A stretch of DNA of 64,000 nt. Origin: a phage. The stretch's first letter is position 1, and every line of letters begins with the position of its first letter. Of the stretch, positions 3 to 48,499 are shown one piece after another. Location of the stretch: the sequence record PZ534515.1, one strand, 5' to 3'. The notes below the pieces were generated by a model, which was not told the DNA's origin, did not search any database, and worked only from the letters and a program-made list of their open reading frames with translations. A program made the position numbers and the translations under genes.

Positions 3-941
3 TTAGGTGAGATTACAACTATTGCAGCACCATCTTCAGTAGGTAAGTCAGCTTACACTCGTGAGATGATTTATTCCGCTTGGAAAGAAACTGATTATAA
101 TATCGGTGTAATCCCTGTAGAAGATACCTATGAAGAGTTGATGGAGATGCTATGTGCAATCCACCTGAGCAAACAGATTTCTGAGATTCCTTATGATGAA
201 CGGGATTGGGATGAATTAAAAGGAGCACACGCAGAACTGTCTAAAGGTCGTCGTATCCATATCGTTGACCATCAAGGGGCAATTGACCAAGATAACCTGC
301 TAGAGTTTGTTGACTACCTTGTTAACAGCTTAGACTGTAAGATTATTATTCTTGACCCTATTACATTGGCTCTGTCACGTTCTGATACGGATGAAGAGGA
401 AGTCTTGTCTGAGCTATTGCGTCGTTGCAAACGCTACCAGTATGCACAGGTAAACGTATGTCACGTTCGTAAGAGTGCAGGTGGTCAGAAAGCCAACTCT
501 GAAGGTGGAGACATCTCTGAAGAGGATATCAAAGGTTCTGGTGCGTATTTCCAGATTTCTATGAATAACATCCTGTTAATGCGTAACAAGGTTGACCCAG
601 ACCCTGTTAAGAAAAACTTGACAAAAATCAAGTTAACTAAGTGTCGTCGTCATGGTAAGTCAACAGGTATTGCTGGTCATACTTGGTACAATCCAGATAC
701 AGGACGTCTTATCAAAGCTTCTGGATGTGGTGTTGATATTGATGGTGCAGCAGAAAATATTCGCCAGCAGTTTGGTATTGGTGAAGCTGAAGACCATTAT
801 GATGACTCTTTACCTCATTATGAGGATGAAGTGTTTGACCGTGAGACTGGTGAAGTCTATACTGAAGAACAGCGTCAAAGTTCAACGATTCCACCTGTAT
901 TAAGTGAGGATGCAGATGACTGCCCGTTCGAAACTGAGTGA
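3..941 (+). CDS. DnaB-like replicative helicase, C-terminal part (5' end lies outside the window)
   Basis: Reading frame is open from the window edge. Walker A-like AAPSSVGKS is at the start of the visible part, followed by a Walker B-like hydrophobic stretch KIIILDPITLA. Sits at the head of a replication gene block. Confidence 0.55.
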   Translation, partial: LGEITTIAAPSSVGKSAYTREMIYSAWKETDYNIGVIPVEDTYEELMEMLCAIHLSKQISEIPYDERDWDELKGAHAELSKGRRIHIVDHQGAIDQDNLLEFVDYLVNSLDCKIIILDPITLALSRSDTDEEEVLSELLRRCKRYQYAQVNVCHVRKSAGGQKANSEGGDISEEDIKGSGAYFQISMNNILLMRNKVDPDPVKKNLTKIKLTKCRRHGKSTGIAGHTWYNPDTGRLIKASGCGVDIDGAAENIRQQFGIGEAEDHYDDSLPHYEDEVFDRETGEVYTEEQRQSSTIPPVLSEDADDCPFETE

Positions 942-1193
942 TAGTTATAAAAGAGAGGGGTTCATACCCTTCTTTGAAGAAAAAAGTTTAAATAAATTTC
1001 AGGAAGAGTGTTTGACAAAGGTTGATAGGTTCTATAGAATGCTCTACATGAAATGTGATGGAGGTGTTGAGGTAGAAGAAAAGTTCCATCACAGCATTAT
1101 CACAGTCACTATTACTATACCTCAACATAATATTGGTTGGCTGTTTGTAATAAAAGAAAATGTGTTTGAATATCAAGTATATCGGAGAATATC

Positions 1194-1343
1194 ATGAAAC
1201 ACTCTAAAGCATTTGAAAAAGTTTTTGGGGATTCCTTAAAAGCCACTGCTGGCAAACCAGCAAAATACTATGAAGAGAAACGTGTAAGAACTGGAAAAAC
1301 TGCACGTAAAGCAGCTTCTAAAGATAAGCACAACTTCCAGTAA
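1194..1343 (+). CDS. small basic hypothetical protein (49 aa)
   Basis: ATG is preceded by GGAG at about 7 nt. Lys-rich product. Too short for the supplied ORF track. Confidence 0.3.
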   Translation: MKHSKAFEKVFGDSLKATAGKPAKYYEEKRVRTGKTARKAASKDKHNFQ

Positions 1344-22006: not shown

Positions 22007-22021
22007 TAAGTAATTTCTTAA

Positions 22022-22047
22022 AAGGCTGCTTCGGCGGCCTTTTTTAT
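22022..22047 (+). terminator. rho-independent terminator
   Basis: GC-rich hairpin (ggctgc-ttcg-gcggcc) followed by TTTTTTATTT. Confidence 0.6.
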
Positions 22048-22106
22048 TTGTATTTTGTGCAGAGTGCTGTATAATTGTGGTCACGATAAACTAAACAGGA
22101 GAACCA

Positions 22107-23814: not shown

Positions 23815-23840
23815 AGGCTCCTTCGGGAGCCTTTTTCATT
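23815..23840 (+). terminator. rho-independent terminator
   Basis: ggctcc-ttcg-ggagcc hairpin followed by TTTTTC. Confidence 0.6.
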
Positions 23841-23855
23841 TCAGGAGATTGTTAA

Positions 23856-25163: not shown

Positions 25164-25356
25164 CTTCTGCAAAGACTGTGCTATCGAAATGTTCGGACGT
25201 GATACAGGTGACTTAAAAGGTCTTATCACTGAAGATGACTTTAAAGCTGGCTATGCAATGCCAGTAATCTGTGAAGGTTGTGGATGTATCTGGGTAGACC
25301 ACGAAGGACAACGTGTAAAACCTTCAGAAGATAAAGAATCTTGGGAGAGATGCTAA
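25156..25356 (+). CDS. small Cys-rich protein (C-x-x-C ... C-x-x-C)
   Basis: In-frame ATG with AAGAGG upstream; CKDC ... CEGCGC. Confidence 0.35.
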   Translation: MADFCKDCAIEMFGRDTGDLKGLITEDDFKAGYAMPVICEGCGCIWVDHEGQRVKPSEDKESWERC

Positions 25357-26142
25357 ATGGGTATTGTAAAAATCATCAATGGGGATATCTTCTCCGCATT
25401 TGATAAAGGTAAGTTTGATATCATTGGTCACGGTTGCAACTGTATGAACTTAATGGGTGCGGGTATCGCTGACAAGATTTCTAAACTTTACCCAAAAGCA
25501 TATGAGACCGATACAGAAGTTTATCTGTATACAGGTGGTATAGGCCACAAACCCTGTGAAAATTTACTAGGCAACTTCTCTGTAGCACGTTTAAAACAAG
25601 GCCGTATAGCTAACCTTTACACTCAGCTTCACACTGGTAAAGATGCCAGATACAGTGCTTTAGAGTCATCTCTGAAACAGCTTAACAGATACTGTGAAGT
25701 TAATCAGTTGAAGAAAGTTGGTTTACCTATGATTGGTGCAGGTATCGGTGGACTTGACCCTCAAGCCGTCACCGTTATCATTAATCAGGTGATGAAGAGT
25801 GTAGATGTCTATCTATATGTCTACGAAGGAGAGATGTACCACAAGTTACGCTCAGGTTGGAAGAACTACTGTGAACCAGAATACTTTGCAGGTGTAGTAG
25901 TGTTCACAGATAACACAGTTACCCTCTTCAGACGAAGAAAAGGTAAGGTACATCAAAGTAACCCTCCGGTTGAAAAGATGTCTCTAAGTAACGCTCTAGT
26001 TACCCACCTGTCGAAGAGCAATCACAGAATTGCAGTAACATTTGGCAGTGATGCAGATACATATATCTATGCAAGAAATGATGAGGATGTTGAGGAAATT
26101 TTCTCTTCACCGGAAGTTACCTTCTTAGACGCAAAGAACTAA
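25357..26142 (+). CDS. macrodomain protein (ADP-ribose binding/processing) with C-terminal extension
   Basis: IINGDIFS ... FDIIGHGCNCMNLMGAGIA matches the macrodomain N-terminal signature; later GLPMIGAGIGGLDP. About 100 aa of C-terminal extension has unknown fold. Confidence 0.65.
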   Translation: MGIVKIINGDIFSAFDKGKFDIIGHGCNCMNLMGAGIADKISKLYPKAYETDTEVYLYTGGIGHKPCENLLGNFSVARLKQGRIANLYTQLHTGKDARYSALESSLKQLNRYCEVNQLKKVGLPMIGAGIGGLDPQAVTVIINQVMKSVDVYLYVYEGEMYHKLRSGWKNYCEPEYFAGVVVFTDNTVTLFRRRKGKVHQSNPPVEKMSLSNALVTHLSKSNHRIAVTFGSDADTYIYARNDEDVEEIFSSPEVTFLDAKN

Positions 26143-26207
26143 GAAACTCTGTAGAATATTCACAATAGACTAAGCCTTTCTTATCTGGTAAATTTTCAGG
26201 TAAGGAG

Positions 26208-26408
26208 GGCTTTTTCATTTTAGAATTGTGCAGGTAGAGTTCTGTAGAGAAATCTGTAGAGAGAATTTTGAACTCCAAAGAGAAAATTTATTTTCAAACT
26301 GTGCAGGTAATCTCCAAAGAGCTTTTTCATTTTCAAAACGTGCAGAACCCACTCAGGTCGGGCAAGAAAAATCATTTTAGAATTGTGCAGGTAGGTGGGT
26401 GCAGGTGG
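26208..26408 (+). repeat. four direct repeats, consensus ttt-CATTTT-N2-AA-N2-GTGCAGGTA
   Basis: Copies at about 26208-26237, 26283-26311, 26320-26348 and 26367-26408 (the last with a duplicated GTGCAGGTgg tail), in a non-coding interval after the macrodomain gene. Confidence 0.6.
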
Positions 26409-26569
26409 GAATGTCGCCATTTCTCACAAGGCTACCACATCTGGAAATAAAAGTCAACAGAAAAATTTGTAGCGGATTGAAAAATAATTATTGATTGTAG
26501 TTCTGTTTTGTGGTAGTCGCGCGCACCCGTTTCATTACAATTCTTGCAAAAATATTTTTAAAATTCCTA

Positions 26570-26598
26570 TTGACTCTTTGAGTATGGTTATCTAATAT
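26570..26598 (+). promoter_or_regulatory. sigma70-like promoter (TTGACT-17 bp-TAATAT)
   Basis: Hexamers with 17 bp spacer, upstream of the first gene of the small-gene array. Confidence 0.5.
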
Positions 26599-26647
26599 TT
26601 GCATCAGACGGGCAAGCAAGCCCACTTCCTAAACTGGAGAATCCAAA

Positions 26648-26854
26648 ATGATGTACAGTCGCGAATTGATGGTTACAACCAACGTTAACACAAAGGCAAA
26701 ACGTTTTTATATGCAAGTGTGCGGCGCATGGCGTAGAATATCAGAAGCTGATTATTGCAACTATGTAGAAACGGCAATTAACTCTAATTGCTACCTAACA
26801 AAGAATACAAAGCGACATATAAAACAGACAGCGGTTTACTATTACGATATATAA
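26648..26854 (+). CDS. hypothetical small protein (array gene 1)
   Basis: ATG with GGAG upstream; followed by a type A module. Confidence 0.45.
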   Translation: MMYSRELMVTTNVNTKAKRFYMQVCGAWRRISEADYCNYVETAINSNCYLTKNTKRHIKQTAVYYYDI

Positions 26855-26942
26855 AAAGTACTTTACAAGGGGCTTAAAAGTTGATATCTTAAGCCCCAGA
26901 TAAAGAGCTTTACTAACTTACCTTAAACTAGGAGATTCTAAA

Positions 26943-27323
26943 ATGGCTTATCGTGCACCGAAATTCATCAATAAAGACAACTTCCGCAACGCACTGGAGA
27001 AGTCACTTGATGAAAAATTTAACGGTAAATTGATTATTGTTCACGCATTCAATTTTAAGTATGATATTAATGGGAATAAAATCAACCATTACACGGCAAC
27101 CATGATAGATGGTACACTATCAAGTGAAAAAGCCGTACTGAATGCACTTGCTGGACGCGGTAAAAACCTGATAAAATGTGATAAGCGACGTTATCAGGGT
27201 GGCGCATATGGTTATGATGATGCTGTTTACCATCTTGAAAACATGGGCTATTCAGTGGAAAAAGCTGGAGTGTCTCAAATAATCGGCAGTGACGGCTATG
27301 TGACAATTTTCAAAATTAACTAA
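26943..27323 (+). CDS. hypothetical protein (array gene 2)
   Basis: Conserved leader taaactaggagattctaaaATG. Confidence 0.5.
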   Translation: MAYRAPKFINKDNFRNALEKSLDEKFNGKLIIVHAFNFKYDINGNKINHYTATMIDGTLSSEKAVLNALAGRGKNLIKCDKRRYQGGAYGYDDAVYHLENMGYSVEKAGVSQIIGSDGYVTIFKIN

Positions 27324-27411
27324 TAAAGTACTTTACAGGGGGCTTATAGTTCGATAAAGTAAGCCCCAGATAAAGAGCTTTACCACTAAATCCTAAATTG
27401 GAGATTCAAAA

Positions 27412-27702
27412 ATGGCTATTATTAAAAACGTTGTAATTCCTGCAAAAACTCGTGATGACGCTCGCATCATGGCGAAAAAGTTAGGCGGGAAAGTGGTTGA
27501 CAACGGAAAACAAACTGCTGTAAGGTGGAACGTGAAGGCGGATAAACAAATGAATTTAAAAAATTCACCAATAAACTTTTTTACATGTGTAAACACTATC
27601 GGGAAAACGAATGTATACACTAAAAAGGCATATATCAGACGCATCGCCATGACGTCACCTATTCGCACAATGAGAAGTCATGCAAAGCTGAAAATTAAGT
27701 AA
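27412..27702 (+). CDS. hypothetical basic protein (array gene 3)
   Basis: Conserved leader; Lys/Arg-rich product. Confidence 0.5.
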   Translation: MAIIKNVVIPAKTRDDARIMAKKLGGKVVDNGKQTAVRWNVKADKQMNLKNSPINFFTCVNTIGKTNVYTKKAYIRRIAMTSPIRTMRSHAKLKIK

Positions 27703-27792
27703 TAGAGTACTTTACAGGGGGCTTAAAAGCTGATATCTTAAGCCCCAGATAAAGAGCTTTACCACTCAATCCTTAAACTAGGAGATTCAAAA

Positions 27793-28305
27793 ATGAAAAC
27801 TGTAGACGCTACCTTTGAAGTTGTAAAAGAAAAATTTTCCATCATTTACGAAGCTGTCAATTGCTACGAAGCAAGCCATAATCTTGATAATTGGAAGTTT
27901 ACAGATGACCATCAAGGCGGTGTGACTATTAAAAACCCCAACTGTCAGCGTAATGGATTTAAATATGCAATTCCTTTACATTACAGCCTTAAACAGCTTT
28001 CAATTGACTATGCAAAACAAGGCCGGGAAAATCCATCGAAAGAGGCTTACATCAGCTTACAGAAAGAACTAGAAAGAGATTTAGAGGCTTCAGAATATAA
28101 CATCGCCGCGAAAGTTGTAGATGCAAACGGTAGCACGGTTTTAGAGAGTTTTTATATTGGTTATGCTTTCGATTGGTGCTACAGTGACGGCGATGATTTA
28201 GATGACAGACTAAAAGAGGAAGTGAACAACGCAGACGCAGAATCTGAAGTATTAGAACGCTTGGAAGCATTAAAAGATTCAGTGATGAATATCTTTAAGA
28301 ACTAA
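27793..28305 (+). CDS. hypothetical acidic protein (array gene 4)
   Basis: Conserved leader. Acidic residues clearly outnumber basic ones by eye. Confidence 0.5.
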   Translation: MKTVDATFEVVKEKFSIIYEAVNCYEASHNLDNWKFTDDHQGGVTIKNPNCQRNGFKYAIPLHYSLKQLSIDYAKQGRENPSKEAYISLQKELERDLEASEYNIAAKVVDANGSTVLESFYIGYAFDWCYSDGDDLDDRLKEEVNNADAESEVLERLEALKDSVMNIFKN

Positions 28306-29107: not shown

Positions 29108-29380
29108 ATGTATACTACTAACAACGGTCGTACTCTAAATGTAACTTTGCGCCACTATGTGAACGGTGTAATGCACTTCGAGGATTTACAAGCCGAACAA
29201 CATATCTTAGATTGGCAACTTGCAGGACTCCAAAAAACTGCTACAGGATACGGGAAAAAGATTCCAACCAGTTGGAAAGTATACTACGAAGGCCGTTTGC
29301 GCAGAATTTATCAAGATGTGCATAGCAATAGCGCAACAAGTTACATCATGGTAAAAGGCAAAAAGCTGCATTTAGTATAA
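29108..29380 (+). CDS. hypothetical protein (array gene 7)
   Basis: Type B leader. Confidence 0.5.
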   Translation: MYTTNNGRTLNVTLRHYVNGVMHFEDLQAEQHILDWQLAGLQKTATGYGKKIPTSWKVYYEGRLRRIYQDVHSNSATSYIMVKGKKLHLV

Positions 29381-29466
29381 AGTACTTTACAAGGGGCTTA
29401 TAGTTCGATAAAGTAAGCCCCAGATAAAGAGCTTTACCACTAAATCCTAAATTGGAGAACTTAAAA

Positions 29467-29871
29467 ATGGCTATTAATAATCGCGAGTTATCAATCTTAA
29501 AAGCACGTTTGACCGTTAACCGGATTAATGTTATTACGTCATCAGCACCGGACGAAACATTGCACAACATTATTGGGAAGATTCAAAGCGTTATCTTAGA
29601 CGTTGAAAACGTAAAAAACTCATTGGCTGACGTTGCAGCAGGTATCACGCTAGACGGTGCACAATATGAAATGACCGACATGTTAGGCAAATCTAAGGTA
29701 ATGAATAAAGAGCTTGATTTGAAAATGTTTCGATTTGCTGTTAAAGTGTGGCTATCTGTCGAGTATGACGCTAATTTTGCAATCGCTGACTTTTTCGCAA
29801 CATGGTTGCAACGTAACTTAACAAATCACGATTTTCGTAATATCTGTGATGCAATTTACGCAGAACTATAA
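29467..29871 (+). CDS. hypothetical protein (array gene 8)
   Basis: Type A leader places the ATG at 29467; the track start at 29452 is probably too far upstream. Confidence 0.45.
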   Translation: MAINNRELSILKARLTVNRINVITSSAPDETLHNIIGKIQSVILDVENVKNSLADVAAGITLDGAQYEMTDMLGKSKVMNKELDLKMFRFAVKVWLSVEYDANFAIADFFATWLQRNLTNHDFRNICDAIYAEL

Positions 29872-29972: not shown

Positions 29973-30176
29973 ATGGCTATTATTAACGGTTTAACCATTG
30001 AAACTACACACATCAAAGATATTAAAGTTGGTGATGTAGTCCTTTCCCACGGCGTAGAGAAAACTGTTACTGCAAAGGATATCAAAGAGGATTCTTTCAT
30101 GGGTAGGACTCTCTTCGGTGATTCTTATTGCTTAGGTTATCTTGCAGTTTTAAAAGTTGTCAAAAATAACCGATAA
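29973..30176 (+). CDS. hypothetical protein (array gene 9)
   Basis: Type B leader. Confidence 0.5.
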   Translation: MAIINGLTIETTHIKDIKVGDVVLSHGVEKTVTAKDIKEDSFMGRTLFGDSYCLGYLAVLKVVKNNR

Positions 30177-30268
30177 AGTACTTTACAAGGGGCTTAAAAG
30201 TTGATATCTTAAGCCCCAGATAAAGAGCTTTACCACTAAATCAAGTCCTTAAACTAGGAGATTCAAAA

Positions 30269-30811
30269 ATGAAATGCTTTCACGGTACTACTCAAGAAAA
30301 TTTTATCAACCTGATTAATAACGGTGATAAGCCATCAGGTGCATGGAATTGTTCGGATATGGATGGGAATTTTTACGTTTATCCAGAAAATAAAATCTAT
30401 GGCGACGATGAGGAAGAGATAATCTCTGAAGGTATCCAGCAAGCTCTGGGCAATGCCGCTATCACCGCAGCTTTCCAGATGAAAACCCAAAATATTGTTA
30501 TCTTAGAACTTGATATTCCAGAAGATGAGTTAAACGATGATTATTCTTGTGATAATATGTCTGGCGTGGCAAGTTTTACAGAATATTTCGATTTAAACTG
30601 GATTAAAAAGGTTTACACCACTGAATTTAATGCTATGTTTTCACCATTTTGTCTGCCTTCACTGGATAACCCGAATTTAAGCTATATTGACGAGTCTCTG
30701 GAACTTCTCGCTAAAAGCGTTCAACAGTCCGACAGTATTCAAGTTTTTTGTGACATCATGGACACACTGACGGGAAACATCATAGAAAGAGATTTAAAGA
30801 GCTTTTTCTGA
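30269..30811 (+). CDS. hypothetical acidic protein (array gene 10)
   Basis: Type A leader; acidic patches. Confidence 0.5.
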   Translation: MKCFHGTTQENFINLINNGDKPSGAWNCSDMDGNFYVYPENKIYGDDEEEIISEGIQQALGNAAITAAFQMKTQNIVILELDIPEDELNDDYSCDNMSGVASFTEYFDLNWIKKVYTTEFNAMFSPFCLPSLDNPNLSYIDESLELLAKSVQQSDSIQVFCDIMDTLTGNIIERDLKSFF

Positions 30812-47695: not shown

Positions 47696-48253
47696 ATGAG
47701 ATATTTGAAGTATGCTTCATGGATTTTCCTAGCTTTGTTAGACCCATTGGCAGCAACCTTAGCAGTTATCTTAGCACCTTTTGTAGTTCCATTCTATAGT
47801 GAGAAGAAAGGACATCTACCTTTTGGATTCAGATGGATGGAGACATATGACAACCCCATTGATGGTGATGAAGGTCACATTAAACGATGGGCTAAGATTA
47901 GAAAGATTGGTAAGCTTGGTGTCTATTTGCAGAGAGTTGGATGGCTCTGGAGAAACAAAGCTTATAACTTCTCTTACCATGTGTTAGGAAGAGATATAAA
48001 AGATGTTACTAAGTGGAAAGGTAATATCAACGTAAGCTCTGACCCTGAAGATAATCAGACAGGTTATCTCCTAATGTGGAACAGTAATGCTTGGGGATTA
48101 TTCGCTTTTATCCCATCAATTAAAGTCTTTGGTAAACAATTCTACTGGAGAATTTATGTTGGGTGGAAACTAAAAAGTGTTGTCCCAGAAGAAAGAGCAT
48201 TCTCAAGGGAAAGAGTTATGTTGGCATTCTTTATTCATCCACTGAGAAAGTAA
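47696..48253 (+). CDS. hypothetical membrane protein embedded in the tRNA bank
   Basis: ATG with AAGAGG 8 nt upstream. N-terminal TM helix (WIFLALLDPLAATLAVILAPFVV), Trp-rich. Flanked by tRNAs on both sides. Confidence 0.5.
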   Translation: MRYLKYASWIFLALLDPLAATLAVILAPFVVPFYSEKKGHLPFGFRWMETYDNPIDGDEGHIKRWAKIRKIGKLGVYLQRVGWLWRNKAYNFSYHVLGRDIKDVTKWKGNINVSSDPEDNQTGYLLMWNSNAWGLFAFIPSIKVFGKQFYWRIYVGWKLKSVVPEERAFSRERVMLAFFIHPLRK

Positions 48254-48261
48254 AGATTTAA

Positions 48262-48337
48262 AGGGGATTAGTTTACAAGGTTAAAACCTCGGTCTTTGAA
48301 ATCGAAGAAGTTGGTTCAATTCCAACATCCCCCGCCA
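48262..48337 (+). tRNA. tRNA-Gln (anticodon TTG), CCA encoded
   Basis: Anticodon stem tcggt/atcga with loop ctTTGaa, T-arm gttgg-ttcaatt-ccaac. Confidence 0.6.
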
Positions 48338-48339
48338 AT

Positions 48340-48418
48340 GCTCCATTACTCCAATTGGCAGAGAGGCCAGACTTAAAATCTGTGTTATGTATCGGTTCGA
48401 ATCCGATATGGAGTACCA
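48340..48418 (+). tRNA. tRNA with anticodon TAA (Leu), variable region about 8 nt, CCA encoded
   Basis: Acceptor gctccat/atggagt, anticodon loop ctTAAaa, perfect T-arm atcgg-ttcgaat-ccgat. Confidence 0.55.
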
Positions 48419-48423
48419 AATTT

Positions 48424-48499
48424 AGCGGTATAGCATAACTGTCAATGCAGCAGTCTCTGAAGCTGTCCTATTAAGGTTCAAATCCTTATGCCGCTGCCA
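48424..48499 (+). tRNA. tRNA-Gln (anticodon CTG), CCA encoded
   Basis: Acceptor agcggta/tgccgct, anticodon loop ctCTGaa, T-arm taagg-ttcaaat-cctta. Confidence 0.65.

Follow-up and report, generated by a model that had tools for sequence, protein, structure and literature searches.

The locus considered here raises the question of why four similar sequences recur, close together and on the same strand, in a non-coding gap just ahead of a run of small phage genes. The stretch of DNA analyzed (64,000 nucleotides of record PZ534515.1, hereafter the window) is Felixounavirus DNA, that is, DNA of a Felix O1-like myovirus. Between positions 25300 and 27400 it matches 255 phage records, nearly all of them from Felixounavirus members, Felix O1-like myoviruses that infect Escherichia, Salmonella, or Shigella, and the closest match is Salmonella phage OPT-SAL01 (99.7% across 26100–26700). 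The original prediction held that the repeats could be binding sites for a phage regulator or promoters for a phage-specific factor. Comparison of the sequences leads us to a reading in which the repeats very probably are docking sites for a putative DNA-binding protein that either times gene expression or starts DNA copying.

Indeed, positions 26209 to 26393 carry four same-strand direct copies of an asymmetric unit of ~28 nt (Table 1) with the pattern (A5/T5)-TCATTTY-N6-GTGCAGgta and the consensus G-(CTTTT or AAAAT)-TCATTTY-cAAwyT-GTGCAGgta. Each unit begins with an A5 or T5 tract, which is followed by two conserved blocks, TCATTTY and GTGCA, that lie ~13 bp (about one helical turn) apart. 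Copies 2 to 4 are preceded by a purine-rich block (CTCCAAAGAG or GGGCAAG), which brings the true repeated unit to ~38 nt. The four direct repeats as first described are present, although the consensus given for them was slightly too strict, because copy 2 reads TATTTT in the window (CATTTT in relatives) and copy 3 ends with GTGCAGAAC rather than GTGCAGGTA. Copy 2 is also the one missing from three-copy variants such as EcoM2. The duplicated GTGCAGGTgg noted after the last copy was likewise found, as GTGCAGGTGGG; judged by its distribution among the sequences compared, this partial duplicate is lineage-specific and lies outside the conserved element.

When scored with a position weight matrix derived from 28 distinct copies of several genera, the cores in the window reach 32 to 40 bits. 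The exact sequence GTGCAGGTA occurs four times in the window where 0.40 occurrences are expected, a number that none of 100 shuffles reaches; three of these lie in the repeat array and one (25736) is within the macro-domain gene. The pattern CATTTTNNAANNGTGCAG fits all four copies with at most one mismatch, and its sole other matches have two mismatches and are located elsewhere on the opposite strand. The repeat cluster is not explained by chance. A tandem repeat finder misses the array because its units are too divergent and too widely spaced.

Table 1. Positions of the repeat copies and of the features that surround them in the window.
Feature	Position	Strand	Description
Solitary fifth copy	22038–22065	+	CCTTTTTTATTTGTATTTTGTGCAGAGT; weaker site, 4.2 kb 5′ of the array
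Macro-domain (Tk.4-like "phosphatase") gene	25357–26142	+	Pfam Macro, PHROG 335
Rho-independent terminator of the macro-domain gene operon	26172–26212	+	17-bp stem
Motif copy 1	26209–26236	+	GCTTTTTCATTTTAGAATTGTGCAGGTA; matrix core score 39.9
Motif copy 2	26282–26309	+	GAAAATTTATTTTCAAACTGTGCAGGTA, with CTCCAAAGA just before; score 35.8
Motif copy 3	26321–26348	+	GCTTTTTCATTTTCAAAACGTGCAGAAC, with CTCCAAAGA just before; score 31.8
Motif copy 4	26366–26393	+	GAAAAATCATTTTAGAATTGTGCAGGTA; score 37.6
Partial duplicate, 3′ block only	26399–26409	+	GTGCAGGTGGG; lacks the motif 5′ half; in 7 of 47 distinct arrays
Sigma70 promoter TTGACT-17-TAATAT	26570–26598	+	AT-rich upstream region; drives the first small-gene-array gene (26648–26854)

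The gap that holds the repeats (26143–26647) is ~500 bp long and non-coding, with the macro-domain gene on its 5′ side and, on its 3′ side, an array of small genes of unknown function that have one promoter apiece. Along the + strand, the gap presents in order the terminator of the macro-domain gene operon, the four copies, a lineage-variable G-rich or C-rich tract, a conserved AT-rich block, and a promoter. The T-tail of the terminator doubles as the T-run that forms the 5′ part of copy 1. The canonical TTGACT-17-TAATAT promoter that was said to follow the repeats is located where expected; the array stands ~180 bp 5′ of it, and the array copies lie between ~180 and ~360 bp from this first strong sigma70 promoter of the small-gene array.

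Several other elements were observed in the same region. The sequence directly after copy 4 (26394–26440) varies by lineage, being a G-rich GGTGGGTGCAGGTGGG in the window, Bas63, and OPT-SAL01, which includes GCAGGTGG, one mismatch from Chi, and a polypyrimidine (C-rich) tract, CCCCTCTCCCCCTCTTACTCCCCCTCTCCCC, in most relatives. The block at 26455–26530, AAAAGTCAAsAGAAAAATTTGTAG...TTGAAAAATAATT, is common to Felixouna- and Mooglevirus and is followed by a promoter-like TTGATT/TTGACT-17-TA(G/T)NNG, in which the last base of the −10 element is G in every lineage seen, a base that is unusual there for a functioning sigma70 promoter. Within the small-gene array, repeated modules (26855–26900, ~27313–27429, 27684–27797, 29377–29476, and 30172–30273) carry a promoter-like TTTACA-17-TATCTT that overlaps a GGGGCTTAA...TTAAGCCCC hairpin lacking a T-tail, which may be a terminator, an operator, or a processing site; these modules correspond to the 57-bp repeats described for Felix O1. 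A weak Rfam match to CRISPR-DR57 inside the macro-domain gene (25918–25954; E = 0.025; 22.7 bits, below the gathering score of 39) was judged to be due to chance.

The original prediction would have fallen if the motif were absent from relatives, and it clearly withstood this check. On searching, we collected 47 distinct arrays from at least five lineages, six of them with three copies. Three or four copies occupy the same genomic place in Felixounavirus, Suspvirus, Mooglevirus, Kolesnikvirus, and an unclassified 88-kb IMG/VR contig (L040) that has no GenBank relative at the DNA level. Start-to-start spacings are 73/39/45 in the Felixounavirus window and in a SUSP2-like Suspvirus contig, 75/41/45 or 77/39/45 in the Mooglevirus members Moogle, Sf17, and ESh21, 37/37/39 in the Kolesnikvirus Erwinia phage phiEa21-4, which carries a GTGCATAG variant, and 36/148/38 in the unclassified contig. 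With that one exception of 148, the spacings range from 36 to 77 bp (3.4–7.3 turns) and are irregular, without helical phasing. The copies persist even though the inter-copy and flanking intergenic DNA cannot be aligned between genera: a 601-bp query aligns with phiEa21-4 over only 67 bp, and this segment spans copies 3 and 4. The first downstream gene differs wholly between lineages, the downstream genes are non-homologous, and the upstream macro-domain gene is the sole neighbor of the array that is conserved in all lineages, which associates the array with the 3′ limit of the operon that contains this gene.

Outside of this phage group the element was not encountered. After removal of chance matches, Ounavirinae-like contigs were all that pattern scans of IMG/VR and metagenomes recovered, E. 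coli genomes contain nothing that resembles the repeat unit, and in RB69, a T4-like phage with tk.4, an intergenic gap after tk.4 was not found. In the unclassified contig, the array (400–1250, minus strand) is arranged as 2+2 copies after a short 148-aa macro-domain gene and a Dam-like methylase; an AT-rich stretch with ~ten TTAACA repeats lies 3′ of the array, and three CTCATTATG-like repeats lie 5′ of it.

Does the array act as DNA, RNA, or protein? Spacings that are not multiples of three across genera indicate that conservation operates at the DNA level. In agreement with the earlier description, the interval is non-coding in effect: the open reading frames that overlap it, including the annotated bas63_0096, bas63_0097, and Moogle115, translate the repeat itself, and no common frame persists between genera. 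A protein-coding repeat was accordingly rejected, as spacings of 37/37/39 and 75/41/45 break the frame and the similarity of the reading frames is that of the repeat aligned in several registers. A structured RNA was rejected on folding z scores of −0.8, +0.4, and +1.1 in three genera with the terminator removed, and Rfam and tRNA searches gave no match in the gap. The gaps between units (9–47 nt) do not conform to a CRISPR array, in which spacers of at least ~26 nt are expected.

A genome terminus or pac site was also considered and rejected. The ends of UAB_Phi87 were mapped experimentally by Bal31 digestion and run-off sequencing (PMC4837284), and its terminal repeat corresponds to window positions 47921–48462, 22 kb from the array. 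This 542-bp terminal direct repeat of the UAB_Phi87 record lies in the tRNA cluster and overlaps the 5′ part of a 185-aa open reading frame (47696–48253), and it probably represents the physical end of the genome in phages of this type. Breaks just 3′ of copy 4, in the C-rich tract, occur in two independent GenBank records, TH10 and LMP34. Because of this tract and the ~75-bp overlap of the TH10 ends, these breaks are probably assembly or coverage artifacts.

The array copies also do not read as promoters recognized by the host. As originally noted, they do not match sigma70 hexamers: they lack a −10 element, and a scan of 25800–27000 yields only the promoters at 26570 and 26862. The lack of a −10 at any fixed distance indicates that the copies are not promoters themselves. 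By hand comparison with consensus sequences, the copies fit neither sigma70, on either strand, nor sigma54, sigma32, or sigmaE. Similarly, hand comparison with DnaA, IHF, Fis, CRP, Fur, Tus/Ter, and marbox sites gave no convincing match, and we regard any resemblances as leads only.

The position of the motif elsewhere in the genome is more informative. In the complete 86.4-kb OPT-SAL01 genome, a matrix scan recovers only the four array copies and one weaker site, and the complete 84.6-kb phiEa21-4 genome contains only the four array copies by matrix or regular-expression scan; the solitary promoter copy is absent in Kolesnikvirus. In the window, the weaker, solitary copy lies directly 3′ of the rIIB terminator (22020–22043) and over about −44 to −17, the −35/spacer region, of a sigma70 promoter, TTGTAT(22048)-16-TATAAT(22070–22075). 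This promoter drives an operon for an SLT-like lipoprotein, a polynucleotide kinase, spanins, small proteins, and the macro-domain protein, which is the operon whose terminator precedes the array; the distance from the solitary copy to the array is 4.2 to 6.6 kb. The equivalent Mooglevirus promoter is TTGAAA-16-TATAAT (11/12). In the Felixouna- and Mooglevirus contigs, the spacer of this promoter retains TGTGCAG despite variation in the five bases to either side of it. The T-run and ATTT of the solitary copy resemble the usual terminator tails of this phage (compare PMC3185647 Table 2), and hence the 7-nt TGTGCAG provides most of the support for assigning this copy to the motif.

A third terminator, at 23815–23832, is followed by TTTTTCATTTC and lacks GTGCAG. 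In the region 23815–23850, this terminator leads into GCCTTTTTCATTTCAGGAGATTGTT, which corresponds to the motif 5′ half only, and the i-spanin gene has its ribosome-binding site and start where GTGCAG would stand. Terminators of this phage seem typically to end in T-rich "TTTTTNATTT" tails.

Published data place the array between genes with different timing. In reverse transcription–PCR experiments with Felix O1, ORFs 3, 4, 6, and 10 of the upstream operon were assigned to 25 min and ORFs 5 and 9 to 10 min, and ORFs 13, 16, and 20 to 22 of the small-gene array peak at 5 min (PMC3185647 Table 3). Thus, genes of different temporal classes meet at the array. The PhageMaP screen probed Bas63 with short barcode cassettes, which were placed where Cas9 cuts (bioRxiv 10.1101/2024.10.10.617714). 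Insertions assigned to "gene 96", whose limits lie inside copy 1 and at the start of copy 4 ("gene 97" comprises copy 4 and downstream DNA), gave fitness values of +0.24 to +0.93 in two hosts, which is in the non-essential range (bioRxiv 10.1101/2024.10.10.617714). Insertions within the Bas63 array are therefore tolerated, and this tolerance fits an accessory regulatory site.

Taken together, the long asymmetric unit, co-orientation, conservation, presence at two loci, promoter overlap, and irregular spacing fit independent or cooperative protein binding best. Of the specific roles considered, we favor that of operator-like sites for one putative sequence-specific DNA-binding protein, which would control transcription at the operon and early–middle boundary, and we hold this view tentatively, at somewhat below even chances. 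It is favored mainly because the fifth copy overlaps the core of a sigma70 promoter. Only this solitary copy overlaps or abuts a core promoter; the four array sites lie 3′ of a terminator and well upstream of the next promoter, which is an unusual placement for operators and argues against the assignment, as does the lack of a solitary copy in Kolesnikvirus. The fact that the units are asymmetric and all co-oriented suggests binding by a monomer or a head-to-tail oligomer and not by a symmetric dimer.

If such a protein exists, a molecule on the solitary copy might compete with or reprogram RNA polymerase at the promoter of the post-rIIB operon, and molecules on the four array copies might form a cooperative anchor past the operon terminator, bordering the immediate-early small-gene array. 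This anchor could loop to the promoter copy, or it could insulate the two temporal classes from each other or act as a roadblock between them. We infer that a protein binds here; its action may be to repress, to loop, to insulate, or to block read-through. None of the 19 proteins whose genes flank the array on its two sides matches a DNA-binding or Rep family. The only recognizable helix-turn-helix regulator of Felixounaviruses is Bas63 gp35, an XRE-type (HTH_3) protein that is found in 261 of 261 non-Erwinia relatives and is essential in PhageMaP (bioRxiv 10.1101/2024.10.10.617714). Because gp35 has no homolog in phiEa21-4, which has the array, it cannot be the universal binder. Within the original proposal, putative binding sites for a regulator are the best-supported part, and such a regulator may or may not be encoded by the phage.

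Operator-like sites recall several known systems. As with lambda OL/OR and lac O1–O3, one site lies over a core promoter and a cluster of the same site is several kilobases away, an arrangement compatible with looping; unlike those palindromes, which bind symmetric dimers and cluster over promoters, the array here lies behind a terminator and lacks a dedicated promoter. T4 middle promoters, with a MotA box at −30 and a sigma70 −10, resemble the solitary copy in that a lineage-specific element occupies the −35/spacer region ahead of a good −10 and expression of the operon is maximal at middle times, but there is only one such promoter per genome, the array copies lack a −10, and MotA and AsiA have not been reported (PMC3185647). 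The marbox sites of MarA, SoxS, and Rob, which are monomeric activators with two helix-turn-helix motifs, are likewise asymmetric and orientation-dependent, span ~20 bp or more, and contain two blocks about one helical turn apart. When aligned by hand to the marbox consensus, the unit agrees at only ~8 of the 14 positions specified, and genes of the AraC family were not found.

The same evidence can be read in other ways. The repeats could constitute an iteron-type replication origin, wherein a phage initiator would bind the four repeats, melt AT-rich DNA, and load the primase-helicase, with the solitary copy in an autoregulatory or auxiliary role. Felix O1-like phages have no known origin, and a genome-unique cluster of three to four direct repeats at one locus, conserved in number and position and set in a 500-bp non-coding gap beside a strong promoter and stretches of 75 to 78% AT, is what such an origin might look like. 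The oriE iterons of T4, another lytic myovirus, provide a precedent (PMC3016281): they too form a direct-repeat cluster beside an early promoter that is syntenic among relatives, and their role is still undefined. They differ in being evenly spaced 12-nt units (PMC3016281), compared with irregularly spaced units of ~28 to 38 nt here, and our array has no adjacent RepEA/RepEB-like gene and has a fifth copy in a promoter. Lambda and plasmid iteron origins, with four O-binding repeats and an AT-rich region in lambda, share the four genome-unique direct repeats beside AT-rich DNA and a promoter. The lambda iterons, however, occur within the initiator gene at intervals of about two helical turns and are internally dyad-symmetric, whereas the units here are long, asymmetric, 36 to 77 bp apart, and irregular, without helical phasing. 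Furthermore, an initiator-like gene was not recognized among the 19 flanking proteins, and the downstream genes are not conserved between lineages. The AT-rich stretches, 50 to 150 bp 3′ of the array, are not exceptional; the AT maximum of the gap belongs to the UP region of the promoter, and stretches just as rich in AT are found elsewhere. GC skew tracks transcription without an inflection at the array. The neutral insertions in Bas63 argue against a single essential origin and are still compatible with a redundant one. We therefore regard an origin as clearly less likely than operator-like sites but as the main and a serious rival; the operator and origin readings are compatible because initiators often autoregulate via a promoter copy of their own site.

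It is improbable that the copies are relics of duplicated terminator-plus-promoter modules or decoys for closed-complex RNA polymerase, with no dedicated binder. The 5′ half resembles T-rich terminator tails, the terminator at 23815–23832 is followed by the same TTTTTCATTTC, the solitary copy is itself a terminator–promoter module, and by direct reading the A/T tract and TTTCAA are loosely like an UP element and a weak −35; but neutral relics would not keep GTGCA, block spacing, and copy number across genera whose flanks cannot be aligned. Nor is RNA polymerase known to make any sequence-specific contact at the position of GTGCAG. Slightly less probable again is the second part of the original proposal, that host RNA polymerase is redirected by a phage-specific factor to four tandem promoters and one dual promoter. 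In favor, the asymmetric motif always points in the direction of transcription, a real promoter coincides with the solitary copy, and tandem promoter clusters open the early regions of other phages (T7 A1–A3). Genome-wide inspection does not support this proposal, however, in that the motif is present at only two loci in the complete genomes scanned and is absent 5′ of structural, replication, and other early, middle, or late units. By direct reading, the array copies are not followed by a consistent −10-like element, and a −10 at fixed distance (TGTGCA-N8-TAnnnT) occurs once only, at the solitary copy. Felix O1 also encodes no RNA polymerase and no known sigma factor or appropriator (PMC3185647).

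Least probable, in our estimation, is a polar protein–DNA barrier or genome-entry pause that splits ~22 kb by one physical end (tRNAs, lysis cluster, and early small genes) from the rest of the genome. A variant that we find equally remote has the array and the promoter partner site bracket the operon as an entry pause or stop, or as a barrier to forks or transcription, with a putative Ounavirinae binder that lacks a recognizable DNA-binding domain. All copies share the same polarity, and the first-step-transfer border of T5 is also repeat-rich. The repeats mark the inner edge of the early small-gene array, and ~22 kb (~25% of the genome) separate them from the terminal repeat as mapped from UAB_Phi87 (PMC4837284). 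Felix O1-like phages are not, however, known to enter in two steps or with a particular end first, insertions in the array are neutral, and the solitary promoter copy is left unexplained. Were it true, the barrier would be a functional analog, in a myovirus, of the T5 first-step-transfer stop region.

We therefore return to operator-like sites as the preferred reading of the array, which is a new, well-delimited case of putative iterated protein-binding sites in a phage control region. In the literature on Felix O1-like phages, we did not find a description of the motif, transcript maps, or origin mapping, and the Felix O1 genome paper gives other direct repeats and promoters but not this element (PMC3185647). 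Among the matches listed, none of 60 GenBank records annotates a repeat, binding, or origin feature at the array. Felix O1 and related phages are classics of diagnostics and are commonly used in therapy and biocontrol, and their temporal control of transcription and terminator bypass were described as not understood (PMC3185647). The array is a precise engineering target, and given that Bas63 tolerates insertions there, it might serve as a safe landing site, or else be one to avoid in therapeutic derivatives. As a sharply defined cis-acting site that is subfamily-wide and genome-unique, with a partner copy in a promoter, the element offers a bait for the missing regulator or initiator of these phages.
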